Part shown: positions 28,937-45,402 of the stretch, in pieces
Numbering within the stretch: position 1 is the first letter of the stretch
Layout: each line of letters opens with the position of its first letter
Source of the DNA: Polaromonas sp.
GTDB taxonomy: Bacteria; Pseudomonadota; Gammaproteobacteria; Burkholderiales; Burkholderiaceae_C
Assembly (NCBI GenBank): GCA_031367325.1
Contig: JANLPQ010000056.1
Span: 2,743 to 66,742, forward strand
Length of the DNA stretch: 64,000 nucleotides
Reading direction: 5' to 3'
Made by a program: the position numbers and the translations under genes
The notes under the pieces: model-generated
Databases searched by the model: none
Told to the model about the DNA's origin: nothing
Seen by the model: only the letters and a program-made list of their open reading frames with translations

Positions 28937-29434
28937 CTAGTCAAGCTCAATAATTGCAGCGCCGCACATCTGTGACAGTGCCATAACAACGATGGCGTGG
29001 TCTTTGCGTTGGGGAAGCCCTGATACTGTGACAACGCCCACGTTACCCATACCGATAACTTGAATTGGAAAACTTCCACCGTGCGAGGCGTAATCCCTTA
29101 GCGGCAACCCCATGCTTTCTTCTAGTGAGCCACCTTCGATTTGAAACGATAGTCCAACTCCATAAGAACTGCGATGCAACAACTCGACTGTATTGCGTTT
29201 GCGCCGCGCCCAGTCAGCGTTAGCAGGGGAAGTGCCAGACATAGCATGAAAAAAAACTGTTTCACATGACAATCTAATCTCAATGGCAACAGAAACTTTT
29301 TTAGCTGTACACATTTCATGAATGCTTGCACCAAGAATCCAAGCGGTTGCGTTATCAAAATGTGAAAAGACGAGAGATTTTTCTTGCGAAACAATACGTT
29401 CTAAGTCTTGTGTGATGGTAGTCATGGATTTCAT
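28937..29434 (-). CDS. UPF0303 family heme-degrading-domain protein
   Basis: 165 aa. The blocks ANADWARRKRNTVELLHRSSY and HGGSFPI...VTVSGLPQRKDH match the UPF0303/GlcG-like family as I recall it. Confidence 0.7.
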   Translation of the reverse strand: MKSMTTITQDLERIVSQEKSLVFSHFDNATAWILGASIHEMCTAKKVSVAIEIRLSCETVFFHAMSGTSPANADWARRKRNTVELLHRSSYGVGLSFQIEGGSLEESMGLPLRDYASHGGSFPIQVIGMGNVGVVTVSGLPQRKDHAIVVMALSQMCGAAIIELD

Positions 29435-29736
29435 TTTTAAAAATTACACGACCTAGATAGGTCTGAAATAATTGATATTGGTATGTTTTGGCCAAGCATT
29501 CACAAGACTTCCAAAAGCTTGTAAAAGTGCGGCACTATGAGCGTTTTCTAATGGTCGGCAGCATGACTTTGAATGCTTGTTTGGTGTAAGTTATTGGCCA
29601 CATCTTTGCGCTAGCAACACCTGCGAATCTGTTTAATCTATATGTTGCATCAGAGGCCCCGATGCAACGAAAGACGTTTTATCTTCGGGTATGCATGAGT
29701 TCAGCAGCATCAACGCCGAGTTTGCCATAGCTTTTG

Positions 29737-30912
29737 TTAATTGCTGATACCGCAGTGCACATACAGCCATTGGCGCATACGGGCACGGGCTAAATCTGGG
29801 TCACGTAAAACGCCGCATGCATCTGCCAGCTCAAATACGCGGGCGTAATGTGCTACGCCGCGCGCGGCCTGCAAGCCACCCGCCATAGAAAAATGCGCTT
29901 GGTGTCCGTTGAGCCAAGCTAAAAATATAACACCTGCTTTGTAATGGCGCGTTGGGGCCTTAAAAATCTCGCGGGACAAAGCTACAGTGGGGTCTAAAAG
30001 CGCGCGAAAACTTGCCTTGTTGCCTTTCGCAAGTTCTCCTAATGCCACGGCTGCGACAGGTGCTATTGGGTCGAAAATCCCCAGCAGTCCGTGCGAAAAA
30101 CCACTGTCGTCACCTTCTATCAATTCAGCGTAATTGAAATCATCTCCTGTGTACATCTTTACGCCCCCGGGCAATCTGCGGCGCAATTCAATCTCCCATT
30201 TAGCCTCTAGCAAAGATACTTTGATGCCCTCTACTTTAGATGTATTGGCGCGAATGAGTGCGGCCACCGTGTCAAGTGCTGTTGGTATGTCGCTTGAACC
30301 CCAGTAGCCTTTTAGAGCGGGATCGAACATTTCACCCAGCCAATGCAAAATGACGGGCTGGTCGCTATCCTGTAATAAGCGACCATAGACTTTGAAATAG
30401 TCATCTGCACTGACGGCTGCACGGGCCATGGCCCTACTGGCCATCAAAATGGCACGTCCACCCTCCGTTTGCACAACATCAAATTGCTCACGGTAGGCCC
30501 GCTCAACCTGGTCTAGAGTGACATCTGTACCAGCTACTAATTGGTCAGTGCCTACGCCACACGCCAAGTCGGCACCGGGCACAGTACGTGCATGGCGCAG
30601 CGAGCGCTGAATCAACTCACGCGCTACAGGCCAGTCCACGCCCATGCCACGTTGTGCTGTATCCATCGCCTCGGCAACACGAAACCCTAGACCATAAAGG
30701 TGGTCTCTAAAAGCCAGCGTGGTGTCCCAGTCTACTTTCGGTGAAGCATCAAAAGGATCTGTGGTGGCAATCGGGTCAATCACCAAATGTGCGGCAGCAA
30801 ATACGGTGCGGTTGAATGTGCCGACTGCCCCGACAGGGGTAATGGGCTGTCCTACCAAAGTGTATTTCTTGAGAGAACCGTCAGATCGGGGGAGTTGCAA
30901 AGTGTGCGACAT
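29737..30912 (-). CDS. DUF993 family protein (DapA-like TIM barrel)
   Basis: 391 aa. The block VDWDTTLAFRDHLYGLGFRVAEAMDTAQRGMGVDW matches the DUF993 signature as I recall it. Confidence 0.65.
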   Translation of the reverse strand: MSHTLQLPRSDGSLKKYTLVGQPITPVGAVGTFNRTVFAAAHLVIDPIATTDPFDASPKVDWDTTLAFRDHLYGLGFRVAEAMDTAQRGMGVDWPVARELIQRSLRHARTVPGADLACGVGTDQLVAGTDVTLDQVERAYREQFDVVQTEGGRAILMASRAMARAAVSADDYFKVYGRLLQDSDQPVILHWLGEMFDPALKGYWGSSDIPTALDTVAALIRANTSKVEGIKVSLLEAKWEIELRRRLPGGVKMYTGDDFNYAELIEGDDSGFSHGLLGIFDPIAPVAAVALGELAKGNKASFRALLDPTVALSREIFKAPTRHYKAGVIFLAWLNGHQAHFSMAGGLQAARGVAHYARVFELADACGVLRDPDLARARMRQWLYVHCGISN

Positions 30913-30927
30913 AGATTGTAATAACTA

Positions 30928-44316: not shown

Positions 44317-44323
44317 TGGATTA

Positions 44324-44337
44324 TTGGAACGTTCCAA
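44324..44337. promoter_or_regulatory. Candidate LacI-family operator O1 (perfect 14 bp palindrome)
   Basis: TTGGAACGTTCCAA is its own reverse complement and has the central CG typical of LacI/GalR operators. It lies between the divergent Gfo/Idh/MocA and LacI genes. Confidence 0.65.
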
Positions 44338-44385
44338 CTTTTAGTCAATTGCTTTTTAAAAAACTAGGGAAAACACCTAAACGCT

Positions 44386-45402
44386 ATGAATGACAACCCA
44401 TCTCCCTCACGCGCAATTACGATCGTGCAAGTTGCTGCAGAGGCCAACGTATCCAAATCCACCGTTTCTTTGGTTCTCAAAGGTAGCCTCTTGATCAAGG
44501 GAGACACTGCCGAGCGGGTTCGCGCTGCCGCCATCAAGCTGGGCTATGTTTACAACCGTCGTGCGGGTGAGCTAAGGGGCAATGCATCGAACGCCATAGG
44601 GGTCATCATCAATGACTTGATGAATCCATTTTTCGCAGAAATTCTGGTGGGTATTGAACGCAAGCTAGTCGAGGCAGGCTATGTGGTTTTGATGGCGCAC
44701 ACCAATGAAAGTGTAGAAATCCAAACGAAAGTTTTGATGTCTATGCGTGAGCAAAATGCAGCCGGAATCCTGTTATGCCCCGCACTCAACACACCACGTA
44801 CATTGCTAAAAGCCATCGAGTCTTGGGGCATTCCACTGGCTGTGTTTGTGCGTAACTTAGGGCCAGGAGATTACGACTTTGCAGGCTCGGATAATGAACT
44901 CGGCGTGTCTTTAGCCACCACACATTTACTCAACGCTGGGCACACCAAAATTGCTTTTTTAGGCGGCCTAAAAGGTGTGGTGCAAACCCAGAGGCTAGCA
45001 GGCTTCAAGGCTGCTTTAGCTAAAAAGTCTATGGCTTTTGATGCTGATTGGGTGCTACCCGCCAAACCCAATCGGCAGGGCGGCTACGACACTATGAGTG
45101 CACTGCTGAGCCAAAAAACAGACGTTACTGCGGCTGTGTGTTACAACGATATCGTCGCATTTGGTGCTCTGTCCGCATTAGGTGAGCGTGGCCTTCGTGC
45201 GGGATCAGACTTTGCATTGATTGGGTTTGACAATGTACTGGACTCAGCCCATTCCAATCCACCGCTGAGCACAGTGGATATTCGACCCAGCGAGCTGGGA
45301 GAGCAATGTGCACAAGTTTTATTGCACCGGATCCGAAATCCCGGCGCAGACCGTCAACTCTATTTGGCTACACCAAGCTTGTTATTGCGGCAAACGGCTT
45401 AA
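44386..45402 (+). CDS. LacI family transcriptional regulator
   Basis: 338 aa with N-terminal HTH VTIVQVAAEANVSKSTVSLVLKG and a periplasmic-binding-protein-like sugar-binding core. Confidence 0.93.
   Translation: MNDNPSPSRAITIVQVAAEANVSKSTVSLVLKGSLLIKGDTAERVRAAAIKLGYVYNRRAGELRGNASNAIGVIINDLMNPFFAEILVGIERKLVEAGYVVLMAHTNESVEIQTKVLMSMREQNAAGILLCPALNTPRTLLKAIESWGIPLAVFVRNLGPGDYDFAGSDNELGVSLATTHLLNAGHTKIAFLGGLKGVVQTQRLAGFKAALAKKSMAFDADWVLPAKPNRQGGYDTMSALLSQKTDVTAAVCYNDIVAFGALSALGERGLRAGSDFALIGFDNVLDSAHSNPPLSTVDIRPSELGEQCAQVLLHRIRNPGADRQLYLATPSLLLRQTA

Follow-up and report, generated by a model that had tools for sequence, protein, structure and literature searches.

On balance we think it probable that a LacI-repressed operon of 12 co-transcribed genes, running from afr to DUF993 within a 64,000-nucleotide stretch of Polaromonas sp. 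DNA (the window), serves growth on ring-locked 1,5-anhydro sugars, the candidate substrates being 1,5-anhydro-D-fructose, 1,5-anhydro-D-glucitol, and 1,5-anhydro-D-mannitol, and, jointly, that the block is a horizontally acquired, mobile copy of a conserved 'afr' operon put in at tRNA-Phe. The genes other than afr would probably carry out an undescribed CoA-assisted opening of anhydro sugars to pyruvate and glycerate. We emphasize that afr is the sole gene tied to anhydro sugars by experiment, and that the roles given below to the others are predictions from sequence.

Table 1. Features of the island and its borders; positions are those of the window.
Feature	Position	Strand	Evidence	Remark
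tRNA-Phe (GAA)	28674..28749	+	ARAGORN	left boundary of island = integration site
UPF0303/HbpS-like (DUF336-type) protein, 165 aa	28937..29434	-	Pfam PF03928 2.4e-28; NCBIfam PRK02487	
DUF993 protein, 391 aa	29737..30912	-	Pfam 1.4e-176; PDB 4dnh 7e-137	
GMC flavoprotein, 537 aa (GMC537)	30928..32541	-	Pfam GMC_N/C; NCBIfam choline-DH subfamily 570 bits	choline-/alcohol-dehydrogenase-like
SDR, 255 aa	32676..33443	-	Pfam adh_short; PDB 4one and 4da9, 2.6e-67	
GMC flavoprotein, 506 aa (GMC506)	33440..34960	-	PDB 6a2u 1.9e-43, 7w2j 1.6e-36	cytoplasmic
MalK-type ABC ATPase, 371 aa	34957..36072	-	Pfam ABC_tran, OB_MalK, TOBE_2	
ABC permease 2, about 299 aa	36077..36976	-	Pfam BPD_transp_1	
ABC permease 1, 288 aa	36969..37835	-	Pfam BPD_transp_1	
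CUT1 solute-binding protein, 412 aa	37972..39210	-	Pfam SBP_bac_1; PDB 4r2b 3e-173	glucose-binding-protein family
NAD(P) aldehyde dehydrogenase (ALDH), 506 aa	39318..40838	-	Pfam Aldedh 3.4e-163; PDB 3u4j 1.8e-162	
Crotonase (enoyl-CoA hydratase/dehydratase), 259 aa	40874..41653	-	Pfam ECH_1 4.3e-57	
Fused family-I CoA-transferase, 532 aa	41646..43244	-	Pfam CoA_trans; PDB YdiF 2ahu 1.8e-110	YdiF/FadX-like
1,5-anhydro-D-fructose reductase (AFR) ortholog (by sequence), 340 aa	43257..44279	-	PDB 4koa 9.5e-126, 2glx 3e-124	gene 1
Predicted LacI operator 2	44303-44316			TTGGAACGATGCAA
Promoter TTGACT-17-AATAAT	44303..44348	-		with two predicted LacI operators
Predicted LacI operator 1	44324-44337			perfect palindrome TTGGAACGTTCCAA
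LacI-family repressor, 338 aa	44386..45402	+	Pfam LacI HTH + Peripla_BP_3	divergent from operon
tRNA-Phe 3′ end, repeated copy	45543..45565	+	direct-repeat family D2	right boundary of island

Thirteen open reading frames on the minus strand adjoin a LacI gene on the plus strand, all with the positions and Pfam domains given for them in an earlier note on this DNA; four junctions overlap by 4 to 8 nt each, and three gaps of 107 to 136 nt occur within the block. Alignment with AFR structures and the promoter/operator layout favor ATG 44279 as the start of gene 1, and TTG 44348 was dropped; for permease 2 the likeliest start is 36976, as called in a near-identical contig where it has 299 aa, the frame from TTG 37027 probably being overlong. 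The block is a true island between tRNA-Phe and the tRNA 3′-end repeat, a label already used in the earlier note and now borne out by that repeat, by a lower G+C (0.46-0.54, against 0.57-0.59 in the flanks), and by the empty site in two relatives, where response regulator, tRNA-Phe, and OmpW follow one another with no insert. Of 18 other genomes from the genus, just 4 were found to have DUF993. The block does end in DUF993 and UPF0303, genes that lie 302 nt apart, but UPF0303 is peripheral, within the island yet outside the conserved core, the operon copies of Variovorax, R. ferrireducens, and Alphaproteobacteria lacking it; a literature search found no published function for either protein, as had been said.

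By sequence, gene 1 is an ortholog of the characterized 1,5-anhydro-D-fructose reductase: it aligns end to end with the AFR structures 4koa and 2glx (E about 1e-125) at about 60% identity, with its cofactor and active-site stretches unchanged (a 15-residue run and ILDITVHD are identical). This orthology ties the operon to the Sinorhizobium 1,5-anhydrofructose route, so that an island once described as an orphan is not fully one, and the statement that it maps to no named pathway has to be given up. The S. meliloti copy of the operon spans SMc04390-04400; we take its AFR gene to be Smc04400, after Kuhn, Yu and Giffhorn (2006), and by locus number smc04396, which is dextrin-induced (PMC4960864), should be its binding-protein gene. 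According to a 2025 review, no aerobic 1,5-AG pathway has been described and the step beyond AFR is unidentified (PMC12441222); our literature search found no paper on the operon's proposed steps.

Among 400 sampled genomes, 16 bear AFR, and in 12 of these, from four families, all 12 genes and LacI recur in the same order; in a thirteenth the operon is cut by a contig end, and three AFR orthologs lie outside the operon. The set whose co-occurrence the earlier note proposed to check (DUF993, the GMC enzymes, and the YdiF-like transferase) is thus found to recur with afr. Devosia and Rhizobium tubonense have the same genes in shuffled order, and LacI orthologs (34-67% identity) stand alongside the cluster in every complete copy. 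Between 28500 and 45700 the minus strand holds a single promoter-like site, a strong one, with the predicted operators placed between and after its -35 and -10 elements and ATG 44279 downstream; the exact 14-bp palindrome fronts afr, DUF993, or the CoA-transferase gene in 12 other Alpha- and Betaproteobacteria genomes (about 0.02 chance matches expected), and in Rhizobiaceae DUF993 bears the same operator as afr. Because gene order is shared by 12 of 16 genomes and the operator by both classes, the sugar-type and CoA-type genes make up one unit, not two, in accord with the earlier view of one catabolic unit under one LacI. The three internal gaps might instead suggest two unrelated operons, one for sugar import and oxidation and one for organic-acid CoA metabolism, adjacent by chance and with separate promoters; we regard this as very improbable, contradicted as it is by a gene set and order kept across Alpha- and Betaproteobacteria, by Devosia and R. 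tubonense, which keep the genes although their order is shuffled, and by the single promoter and operator region.

The binding protein is about two-thirds identical in alignment to 4r2b, its closest solved relative, which we take to be Oant_3817, presumably crystallized with glucose. We propose that its ligand is a 1,5-anhydro-hexitol or 1,5-anhydrofructose; given the glucose in 4r2b, it could instead be plain glucose or another hexose. Other matches are the SAR11_0769 glucose/galactose-binding protein (8hqq, 1.5e-113) and the P. putida glucose-binding protein (5dvf, 3.7e-110), the ligands of the SAR11 structures 8hqq and 8kd0 being taken from PMC11485210. GMC506 resembles the catalytic subunit of FAD-glucose dehydrogenase and fructose dehydrogenase; no small or cytochrome subunit gene for it was found within the block, and its CxxCxxCx4C motif (191-203) occurs in Comamonadaceae copies only. 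Its proposed role is oxidation of a ring secondary alcohol, from 1,5-anhydroglucitol to 1,5-anhydrofructose. GMC537, whose His/Asn pair is kept in 12 orthologs, has PDB matches to choline dehydrogenase, a chloramphenicol-oxidizing GMC enzyme, and alcohol oxidases, and its S. meliloti counterpart, SMc04390, is annotated as L-sorbose dehydrogenase; we propose that it makes the aldehyde from the primary alcohol at C6. The ALDH, which matches both 3u4j (presumably an NAD-dependent ALDH of S. meliloti) and L-sorbosone dehydrogenase (7w5l, 9.4e-155), would then convert the sugar-6-aldehyde to 2,6-anhydro-hexonate.

The earlier note had found no dehydratase, aldolase, or kinase here, and each absence needs revision. 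A (de)hydratase is already present in the crotonase, which keeps both catalytic glutamate motifs (GGGLE115 and PE135) in 12 of 12 orthologs and is proposed to remove the C4 hydroxyl from the acyl-CoA by beta-elimination. DUF993 is a DHDPS/NAL-fold TIM barrel, an aldolase/dehydratase fold, with a lysine at the Schiff-base position: Foldseek matches of its AF2 model (pLDDT 90) are DHDPS, NAL, KDG aldolase, KdgD, L-KDA dehydratase, and YagE (TM(target) about 0.8), the invariant K231 aligns with DapA K161, and in the alignment to DHDPS GVGTD is the counterpart of GTTGE and H190 that of Y133, placing His where DHDPS/NAL has its catalytic Tyr; Pfam gave no sequence-level match to PF00701. It is proposed to cleave the C-C bond of a 2-keto-3-deoxy (or 2,4-diketo) hexonate, and acetopyruvate, a 2,4-diketo acid, occupies the DHDPS site (title of PDB 5t26). 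As for a kinase, at least 9 loci from Comamonadaceae and Alphaproteobacteria have a MOFRL glycerate kinase gene right beside the cluster; the Polaromonas genome itself has glycerate kinase elsewhere, plus a KDPG aldolase. The CoA-transferase scores 353 bits against NCBIfam FadX, under the cut-off. For the SDR, which matches 4one and 4da9 (the latter presumably an SDR of S. meliloti), our guess is that it dehydrogenates the keto-deoxy acid formed on ring opening, either free or as the CoA ester. A minimal cluster in Polaromonas jejuensis (CoA-transferase, crotonase, SDR, and DUF993, with an acid-type ABC importer and LacI under the same operator) is consistent with a pathway whose 'acid' half can stand alone.

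Specifically, we propose that i) the ABC system with its glucose-like binding protein would import the anhydro sugar; ii) GMC506, being FAD-GDH-like, would oxidize 1,5-anhydroglucitol to 1,5-anhydrofructose; iii) AFR would reduce this with NADPH to 1,5-anhydromannitol; iv) the choline-DH-like GMC537 and the sorbosone-DH-like ALDH would convert the C6 hydroxymethyl to a carboxylate (2,6-anhydro-D-mannonate); v) the YdiF-type transferase would make the CoA thioester, acidifying the C5 proton; vi) the crotonase would remove the C4 hydroxyl, leaving a cyclic enol ether, hydration of which would yield a hemiketal and open the ring, the manno product being 2-keto-3-deoxy-D-gluconate (KDG) or its CoA ester, and CoA would be handed to the next substrate molecule; vii) the SDR and DUF993 would turn this into pyruvate and a C3 unit, either by a 4-dehydrogenase step and cleavage of the 2,4-diketo acid to pyruvate and glycerate, or by plain aldol cleavage to pyruvate and glyceraldehyde; and viii) glycerate kinase, next door in many relatives, would feed glycolysis. 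By our own stereochemical derivation D-erythro KDG could come only from the manno epimer, which would be why AFR makes the mannitol configuration. Several points count against this scheme: ordinary crotonases do not add water to the alpha carbon of an alpha-alkoxy-acrylyl thioester; AFR orthologs occur without the operon; DUF993 has His for Tyr; and the variant L035-type cluster, with acyl-CoA dehydrogenase and ETF added, suggests a step order more like beta-oxidation.

The steps after AFR are also weighed against by the published mannose route, which needs no CoA enzyme. In the S. morelense model, as the review summarizes it, 1,5-anhydromannitol is converted to mannose by C-1 oxygenation, the hydroxylase being called unidentified (PMC12441222). 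Were that route complete here, with an oxidase or oxygenase (which could be GMC506 acting as an ether alpha-dehydrogenase, its nearest solved relatives oxidizing glucose C-1, as in 6a2u) hydroxylating C-1, then CoA-transferase, crotonase, ALDH, SDR, GMC537, and DUF993 would be left to serve some other co-regulated substrate. We consider this rather unlikely: in 12 of 16 genomes the eight enzymes all accompany afr, their order unchanged and one operator governing them, Rhizobiaceae DUF993 shares the afr operator, the cluster has no mannose kinase or isomerase, and its recurrent neighbor is a glycerate kinase, not a hexose kinase.

Another glucose-like compound (an osone such as D-glucosone, an L-sorbose-type ketose, or a deoxy-hexose) is unlikely as the substrate: AFR, which reportedly reduces 2-keto-aldoses too, would be an osone/keto-sugar reductase, and the remaining enzymes would oxidize the sugar, and the acid so formed would be processed as its CoA ester, as befits a binding protein of the glucose family and an ALDH and GMC enzyme similar to sorbosone and sorbose dehydrogenases. 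Ordinary hexoses and osones can ring-open, however, and have standard kinase/dehydratase routes, CoA activation is best explained by an unopenable ring ether, and about 60% identity of AFR, together with synteny of the operon, speaks for a function shared with the Sinorhizobium enzyme. Rather unlikely too is a beta-oxidation-like order on the same substrate, in which the SDR would oxidize the C4 beta-hydroxyl to a beta-keto thioester after CoA activation, C-C cleavage would break the ring, and a GMC enzyme would oxidize the resulting linear ether; transferase, crotonase, and SDR do resemble a beta-oxidation set, as does the L035-type addition, but no copy has a thiolase, the DUF993 fold points to 2-keto-acid Schiff-base chemistry rather than thiolysis, the ether would remain for cleavage, and the glycerate kinase linkage suits a C3 + C3 split.

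Elements of the proposed pathway can be compared with known systems. In the S. morelense/S. meliloti 1,5-anhydro-D-fructose pathway (AFR, EC 1.1.1.292), to which gene 1 would belong, AFR alone is characterized; SMc04390-04392 (GMC, SDR, dehydrogenase) match the final part of the Polaromonas operon, indicating the same operon type, yet the CoA enzymes, GMCs, ALDH, and DUF993 conserved with afr go unused in the published route. The Gluconobacter L-sorbose/L-sorbosone dehydrogenase pair, which forms 2-keto-L-gulonate, likewise joins a GMC flavoprotein to an NAD(P) ALDH and turns a ring-attached CH2OH into COOH, but acts on sorbose where 1,5-anhydromannitol is proposed here, and here a catabolic operon encodes the enzymes, which are cytoplasmic. 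In carnitine dehydration by CaiB/CaiD a transferase makes the CoA ester, the crotonase dehydrates it, and CoA is recycled; the same logic, a beta-hydroxy acid dehydrated only as its CoA ester, is proposed for 2,6-anhydro-hexonate, although CaiB is a family-III transferase and ours a YdiF-like family-I enzyme, and here the substrate would be a sugar acid whose elimination opens the ring. L-Rhamnose/L-fucose routes end with a 4-dehydrogenase (SDR) and a 2,4-diketo-3-deoxy-acid hydrolase, giving pyruvate and lactate; as in these and in KDG aldolase endings, a DHDPS/NAL-fold enzyme and an SDR would here stand at the end, and pyruvate plus a C3 acid would be expected, in line with the glycerate kinase linkage. 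DUF993 is nevertheless a family of its own (no PF00701 match, Tyr133 to His), and the diketo-hydrolases known so far adopt the FAH fold instead of a TIM barrel. The same DUF993 (54-60% identity across phyla) occurs in many soil bacteria in a module with a 387-aa Gfo/Idh/MocA protein, sometimes with a xylose-isomerase-like TIM barrel, but never together with CoA or afr genes: of 80 loci, the Gfo partner is present in 48 and the CoA/SDR/AFR set in 24, with no locus carrying both. Finally, the anaerobic glycyl-radical route of gut bacteria for 1,5-anhydroglucitol and 1,5-anhydromannitol (YbiW/PflD; Ma et al., summarized in PMC12441222) deals with the substrates proposed here and likewise has to open the ring ether; it proceeds through phosphorylation by the PTS and a radical enzyme sensitive to oxygen, whereas the operon, with no kinase, PTS, or radical enzyme, would rely in aerobes on flavin, NAD(P), and CoA enzymes.

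Thirteen consecutive minus-strand genes and a divergent plus-strand LacI gene are present in the ORF list as the earlier note described (coordinates in the table), and every gene family it named was confirmed with Pfam and NCBIfam; the gene block stands as observed, while the interpretation placed on it is supported in part. The order is a Gfo/Idh/MocA dehydrogenase (gene 1, or afr), a fused family I CoA-transferase (CoAT), a crotonase, an aldehyde dehydrogenase (ALDH), a CUT1 binding protein, two permeases and a MalK-type ATPase, followed by a GMC flavoprotein of 506 residues (GMC506), an SDR, a GMC flavoprotein of 537 residues (GMC537), DUF993, and an HbpS-like/UPF0303 protein. 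Four gene junctions overlap by 4-8 nt; the start of gene 1 was moved to an ATG that gives a protein of 340 aa, and permease 2 most likely begins at 36976. UPF0303, which lies 302 nt away from the cluster and is missing in most copies, is not part of the conserved core. Two repeats were seen between genes: a tandem TTAGCTA heptamer (6.7 copies, 92% matches) in the 136-nt gap between the binding protein and permease genes, where it overlaps the binding-protein stop codon; and a perfect 8-bp inverted repeat, GTTGCATC-N9-GATGCAAC, between DUF993 and UPF0303, whose arms include TTGCATC, one half of the second LacI operator site described below; a terminator, a weak operator, and a REP-like element are all conceivable roles for it.

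Coordinates of features in and around the block
Feature	Position	Strand	Remark
Response regulator gene	27862-28551		beside an NtrY-like kinase
tRNA-Phe	28674-28749		block starts just past it
Thirteen-gene block	44348-28937	minus
8-bp inverted repeat	29641-29665		between DUF993 and UPF0303
DUF993 gene	29737-30912	minus	391 aa
GMC506 gene	33440-34960	minus	506 aa
TTAGCTA tandem repeat	37937-37983		between binding protein and permease genes
Gene 1 (afr) start	44279	minus	ATG, moved start
Promoter-like site	44348-44320	minus	TTGACT-17-AATAAT
Palindrome	44324-44337		predicted LacI operator
LacI gene	44386-45402	plus	divergent
95-nt repeat, first copy	45471-45565		ends in tRNA-Phe 3′ sequence
23-nt repeat of tRNA-Phe 3′ end	45543-45565		far end of block
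AbiEi/AbiEii pair	46067-47807		within 45471-48061
95-nt repeat, second copy	47967-48061		ends in tRNA-Phe 3′ sequence

The gene content of other loci, mapped by tblastn with the window's proteins, shows that the sugar-type and CoA-type genes recur as one set. Specifically, i) the same gene set in unchanged order is found in Variovorax sp. HW608 and Rhodoferax ferrireducens; ii) in a DUF993-centred comparison of 80 loci from named genomes, DUF993 is accompanied by orthologs of the Gfo gene (55-62% identity to the window), CoAT (67-70%), crotonase, ALDH, binding protein, and LacI in Rhizobium, Pararhizobium, Shinella, Sinorhizobium, Phyllobacterium, Devosia, Paraburkholderia, and Caballeronia, with gene order partly altered; and iii) in a second census, seeded on afr, 16 of 400 sampled Pseudomonadota genomes carry an afr ortholog, and 12 of these, from four families, have all twelve genes from afr to DUF993 (the afr operon, S. 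meliloti SMc04390-04400 type) plus LacI in the window's order (G334, G207, G428, G299, G135, G103, G155, G123, G317, G413, G347, and G159), one further locus being cut by a contig end. The remaining three afr-bearing genomes (G139, on contigs L120/L121, G048, and G295; 59-62% identity) have the gene without the operon; in G139 it adjoins methylcrotonyl-CoA-carboxylase-type genes, a crotonase, and an acyl-CoA synthetase, and these leucine-catabolism-type surroundings give no functional hint.

A single promoter-like site was found on the coding strand between 28500 and 45700 of the window, and the perfect palindrome TTGGAACGTTCCAA, the predicted LacI operator, lies between its hexamers, with a second, related candidate site just downstream. 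The exact 14-mer also stands in regulatory regions of a further 12 genomes (about 0.02 chance matches expected), where it precedes afr (G334), the divergent DUF993 gene (seven Rhizobiaceae loci and G207), CoAT (Polaromonas jejuensis), or GMC506 (G317). Within the block no further convincing LacI operator was found; one match with 3 mismatches, inside GMC506, is at chance level. We reject the reading of the block as two unrelated operons, which the earlier note had named as a refuting case, because the gene set and order are conserved, there is one promoter-like site, and the operator recurs.

The block adds a new, mobile example to a conserved type of operon, and the trait is mobile in the Polaromonas genome as an island at tRNA-Phe. 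The island status proposed earlier is borne out by the far boundary, where the tRNA 3′ end is directly repeated, and by the empty site in two relatives (G004 and G011), where response regulator, tRNA-Phe, and OmpW follow one another with no insert. G+C is 0.46-0.54 within the block and 0.57-0.59 outside, and 4 of the 18 further genomes examined from the genus carry DUF993. The homologues of DUF993 assign the organism to the Comamonadaceae, close to Polaromonas and Rhodoferax. No integrase-like ORF was found between 28750 and 48061 in the ORF list or with Pfam, and a search of the plasmid collection found no near match. Beyond the block lies an AbiEi/AbiEii pair (type IV toxin-antitoxin/abortive infection) flanked by two 95-nt repeats that are 79% alike; one relative (G007) has the AbiE cassette alone behind tRNA-Phe, so the afr block and the AbiE cassette are independent modules stacked at one tRNA. 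The response regulator on the other side of the tRNA, 229 aa long, consists of a receiver domain and a Fis-type HTH only, without the sigma-54 AAA+ module, and is 79-100% identical at the protein level across all 12 genus relatives examined.

Gene 1 carries the functional reading. It matches the 1,5-anhydro-D-fructose reductases (AFR) 4KOA of S. meliloti (9.5e-126) and 2GLX of S. morelense (3e-124) over ORF residues 30-358 with one 1-residue gap, the next-best structure scoring only 3e-28, and the stretches GASTIA, EKP, and ILDITVHD are identical in gene 1 and both AFR structures. We take GASTIA to be the cofactor fingerprint of AFR and the Lys/Asp/His stretches (EKP, DITVHD) to be catalytic; the residue roles were reportedly worked out by Dambe et al. 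in 2006. Gene 1 is thus predicted from sequence to be AFR (EC 1.1.1.292), catalyzing NADPH-dependent reduction of 1,5-anhydro-D-fructose (1,5-AF) to 1,5-anhydro-D-mannitol (1,5-AM), and this full-length match to a characterized enzyme goes against the earlier statement that the combination could not be mapped to any named pathway.

Transport and oxidation enzymes can be read alongside. About two-thirds of the residues of the binding protein are identical in 4R2B (E 3e-173), presumably Oant_3817 of Ochrobactrum anthropi with glucose bound, and the protein is clearly related to SAR11 and Pseudomonas glucose-binding proteins. Since 1,5-anhydro-D-glucitol (1,5-AG) is 1-deoxy-glucopyranose, a glucose-type pocket is what would be expected for it. 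The ligands of 8HQQ and 8KD0 are glucose and galactose (PMC11485210). Induction by dextrin has been reported for smc04396 (PMC4960864), whose locus number should make it the gene for the binding protein in the S. meliloti copy; this is a small supporting point for the anhydro-sugar reading. ALDH matches 3U4J (1.8e-162) and an NAD(P)-dependent L-sorbosone dehydrogenase (9.4e-155). We take 3U4J to be an NAD-dependent ALDH of S. meliloti, where the annotations of SMc04390 (L-sorbose dehydrogenase, GMC), SMc04391 (SDR), and SMc04392 (dehydrogenase) fit the last three enzyme genes ahead of DUF993. GMC537 is choline- or alcohol-dehydrogenase-like and conserves the His/Asn pair. GMC506 is homologous to the catalytic subunit of the three-subunit membrane FAD dehydrogenases (FAD-GDH and fructose DH; 6a2u 1.9e-43, 7w2j 1.6e-36) but, unlike these, has no small (Tat-signal) or cytochrome c subunit ORF in the block; it has no export signal, and its gene lies between the ABC ATPase and SDR genes in all copies. 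Residues 191-203, CQRCANCDAFPC, form a CxxCxxCx4C motif at what is presumably the Fe-S cysteine position of FAD-glucose dehydrogenase. A 3Fe-4S-type cysteine cluster was rejected as a general feature of GMC506, since the motif is confined to the Comamonadaceae copies (window and G334) and each of the 10 alphaproteobacterial orthologs has residues other than cysteine there; electrons may leave the enzyme by different outlets in different lineages.

The earlier note held that the block lacks a kinase, an aldolase, and a dehydratase, and none of the three statements is supported. The crotonase keeps both catalytic glutamates in every ortholog. DUF993 is 54-60% identical from Proteobacteria to Streptomyces, Paenibacillus, and Verrucomicrobia, and in a 26-sequence alignment (65% mean column identity) K231 is invariant. 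Its AlphaFold model (pLDDT 90) matches 4DNH best in Foldseek and then DHDPS, NAL, YagE, KDG aldolase, KdgD/keto-deoxy-galactarate dehydratase, and L-KDA dehydratase (probability 1.0, TM(target) 0.77-0.83). Motif- and sequence-level alignment with E. coli DapA pairs GVGTD119-123 with GTTGE43-47, PVILH190 with PQILY133, and GIK231 with GIK161; DapA K161 is the Schiff-base lysine at the end of strand 6, and K231 is predicted to occupy its position. Unlike DHDPS and NAL, DUF993 has an invariant His190 in place of catalytic Tyr133 (DapA numbering). The PF00701 profile did not match DUF993 (PF06187 only), a DUF993 profile against PDB sequences retrieved 4dnh and no DHDPS chain, and hhalign with E. 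coli DapA was insignificant; sequence profiles being blind to the relationship, the link rests on fold search and motifs. By predicted structure and motifs, then, DUF993 belongs, as a divergent branch, to the pyruvate-type class I aldolase/dehydratase fold and has the lysine in place. As for a kinase, a MOFRL-type glycerate kinase gene adjoins the cluster in R. ferrireducens, two Polaromonas, Rhizobacter, Aquabacterium, and four alphaproteobacterial census genomes, and the Polaromonas sp. genome itself has one elsewhere, along with a KDPG aldolase. This linkage and the DUF993 fold together point to a C6 substrate split to pyruvate and glycerate.

A 1,5-anhydro-hexitol is a cyclic ether that cannot ring-open by itself because it has no anomeric carbon. 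In the route we propose, the anhydro sugar would be imported; GMC506 would oxidize 1,5-AG at C2 to 1,5-AF; AFR would reduce 1,5-AF to 1,5-AM, the single characterized reaction of the route; GMC537 and ALDH would take C6 to the carboxylate, by analogy with sorbose and sorbosone dehydrogenases acting on a ring-attached CH2OH; CoAT would form the CoA thioester; the crotonase, following the logic of CaiB/CaiD carnitine dehydration, would take the acidified C5 proton and expel the C4 hydroxyl; water would add at C5 of the cyclic enol ether, the hemiketal would open, and CoA would be handed on; and the SDR (whose role is a guess) and DUF993 would release pyruvate and a C3 unit. Renumbered from the new carboxyl, the manno epimer gives 3-deoxy-D-erythro-hex-2-ulosonate, that is, 2-keto-3-deoxy-D-gluconate (KDG), and the gluco epimer the L-threo isomer; that only the manno epimer gives KDG would be a reason for the AFR stereochemistry.

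For the last step we lean slightly towards oxidation at position 4 and subsequent splitting of the 2,4-diketo acid into pyruvate and glycerate, rather than a plain KDG aldolase reaction with ALDH oxidizing glyceraldehyde, because the P. jejuensis mini-cluster has SDR and DUF993 without ALDH, because glycerate kinase is the linked kinase, and because acetopyruvate-type ligands occupy the DHDPS site (5T26). That mini-cluster (L016, strain NBRC 106434, 216-9497) comprises a polar-amino-acid-type ABC importer (SBP_bac_3), DUF993 (75% identity), LacI (67%), CoAT (84%), crotonase (78%), and SDR (74%), with the same LacI operator as in the window (5802-5815); it is without AFR, ALDH, GMC, and the CUT1 importer, and resembles an "acid half" of the pathway standing alone. 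Against the proposed order of steps, a variant cluster with acyl-CoA dehydrogenase and ETF, a third setting of DUF993, hints at one more like beta-oxidation: in five alphaproteobacterial loci (L035, L047, L055, L072, and L093) DUF993 accompanies a GMC537-like protein (~51%), CoAT (~61%), crotonase, acyl-CoA dehydrogenase, and a fused ETF gene, which suggests a related pathway for a substrate without a beta-hydroxyl. More broadly, DUF993 stands in two settings that exclude each other among the 80 loci: in 48 its partner is a Gfo/Idh/MocA protein of 387 aa, often joined by a xylose-isomerase-like barrel, in 24 it is the CoA/SDR/AFR set, and no locus combines the two.

Counting against the proposed crotonase step, alpha-hydration of an alkoxy-acrylyl thioester is, to our knowledge, outside standard crotonase chemistry. 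The CoA route is also at odds with the published model, in which 1,5-AM is converted to mannose through a C-1 hydroxylase yet to be identified (PMC12441222). Pathways for DMSP/acrylate, PEG, carnitine, inositol, deoxyribose, 3-keto-glycosides, and levoglucosan were rejected, their hallmark genes being absent and gene 1 being AFR. Sugar catabolism of the oxidative, non-phosphorylative kind probably has a new form in this pathway. More tentatively, and as a possibility we would put somewhat on the doubtful side, the afr operon could be the first aerobic route for 1,5-anhydro-hexitols and 1,5-AF to dispense with an oxygenase or radical enzyme, in which a C6 carboxylate, its CoA thioester, and crotonase-type elimination beside the ring oxygen open the tetrahydropyran to KDG, and DUF993 performs the C-C cleavage that frees pyruvate.

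AFR and its role were already known; in the literature outside subscription sources we found no paper assigning the afr-operon genes other than afr, and no description of the pathway under its gene-family or anhydro-sugar and CoA topics. The present analysis adds a census built around AFR, the finding that the operator is conserved, the placing of the DUF993 lysine, the resemblance of ALDH to sorbosone dehydrogenase, the link of the cluster to glycerate kinase, an argument from stereochemistry, and the recognition of the block as an island in the Polaromonas sp. genome. 1,5-AG and 1,5-AF occur widely in food and plants and in the breakdown of starch or glycogen, and we know of no aerobic degradation past AFR. 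According to a 2025 review (PMC12441222), an aerobic pathway for 1,5-AG is yet to be described, and treating the neutropenia of GSD Ib and G6PC3 deficiency with a probiotic would require an enzyme that metabolizes 1,5-AG aerobically. If correct, the proposed route would supply that missing pathway, extend the use of CoA thioesters with sugars to a new task, the opening of a ring ether, give the widespread orphan family DUF993 a reaction, account for a repressor-controlled operon of many rhizosphere bacteria, and call for revision of the model of C-1 oxygenation to mannose. A known system for comparison is CaiB/CaiD, which the crotonase resembles in its catalytic glutamates (E115 and E135 motifs in all orthologs) and from which CoAT differs in belonging to family I (PF01144; YdiF 2ahu 1.8e-110) where CaiB belongs to family III; CoAT may work like Cai though it is no Cai member.
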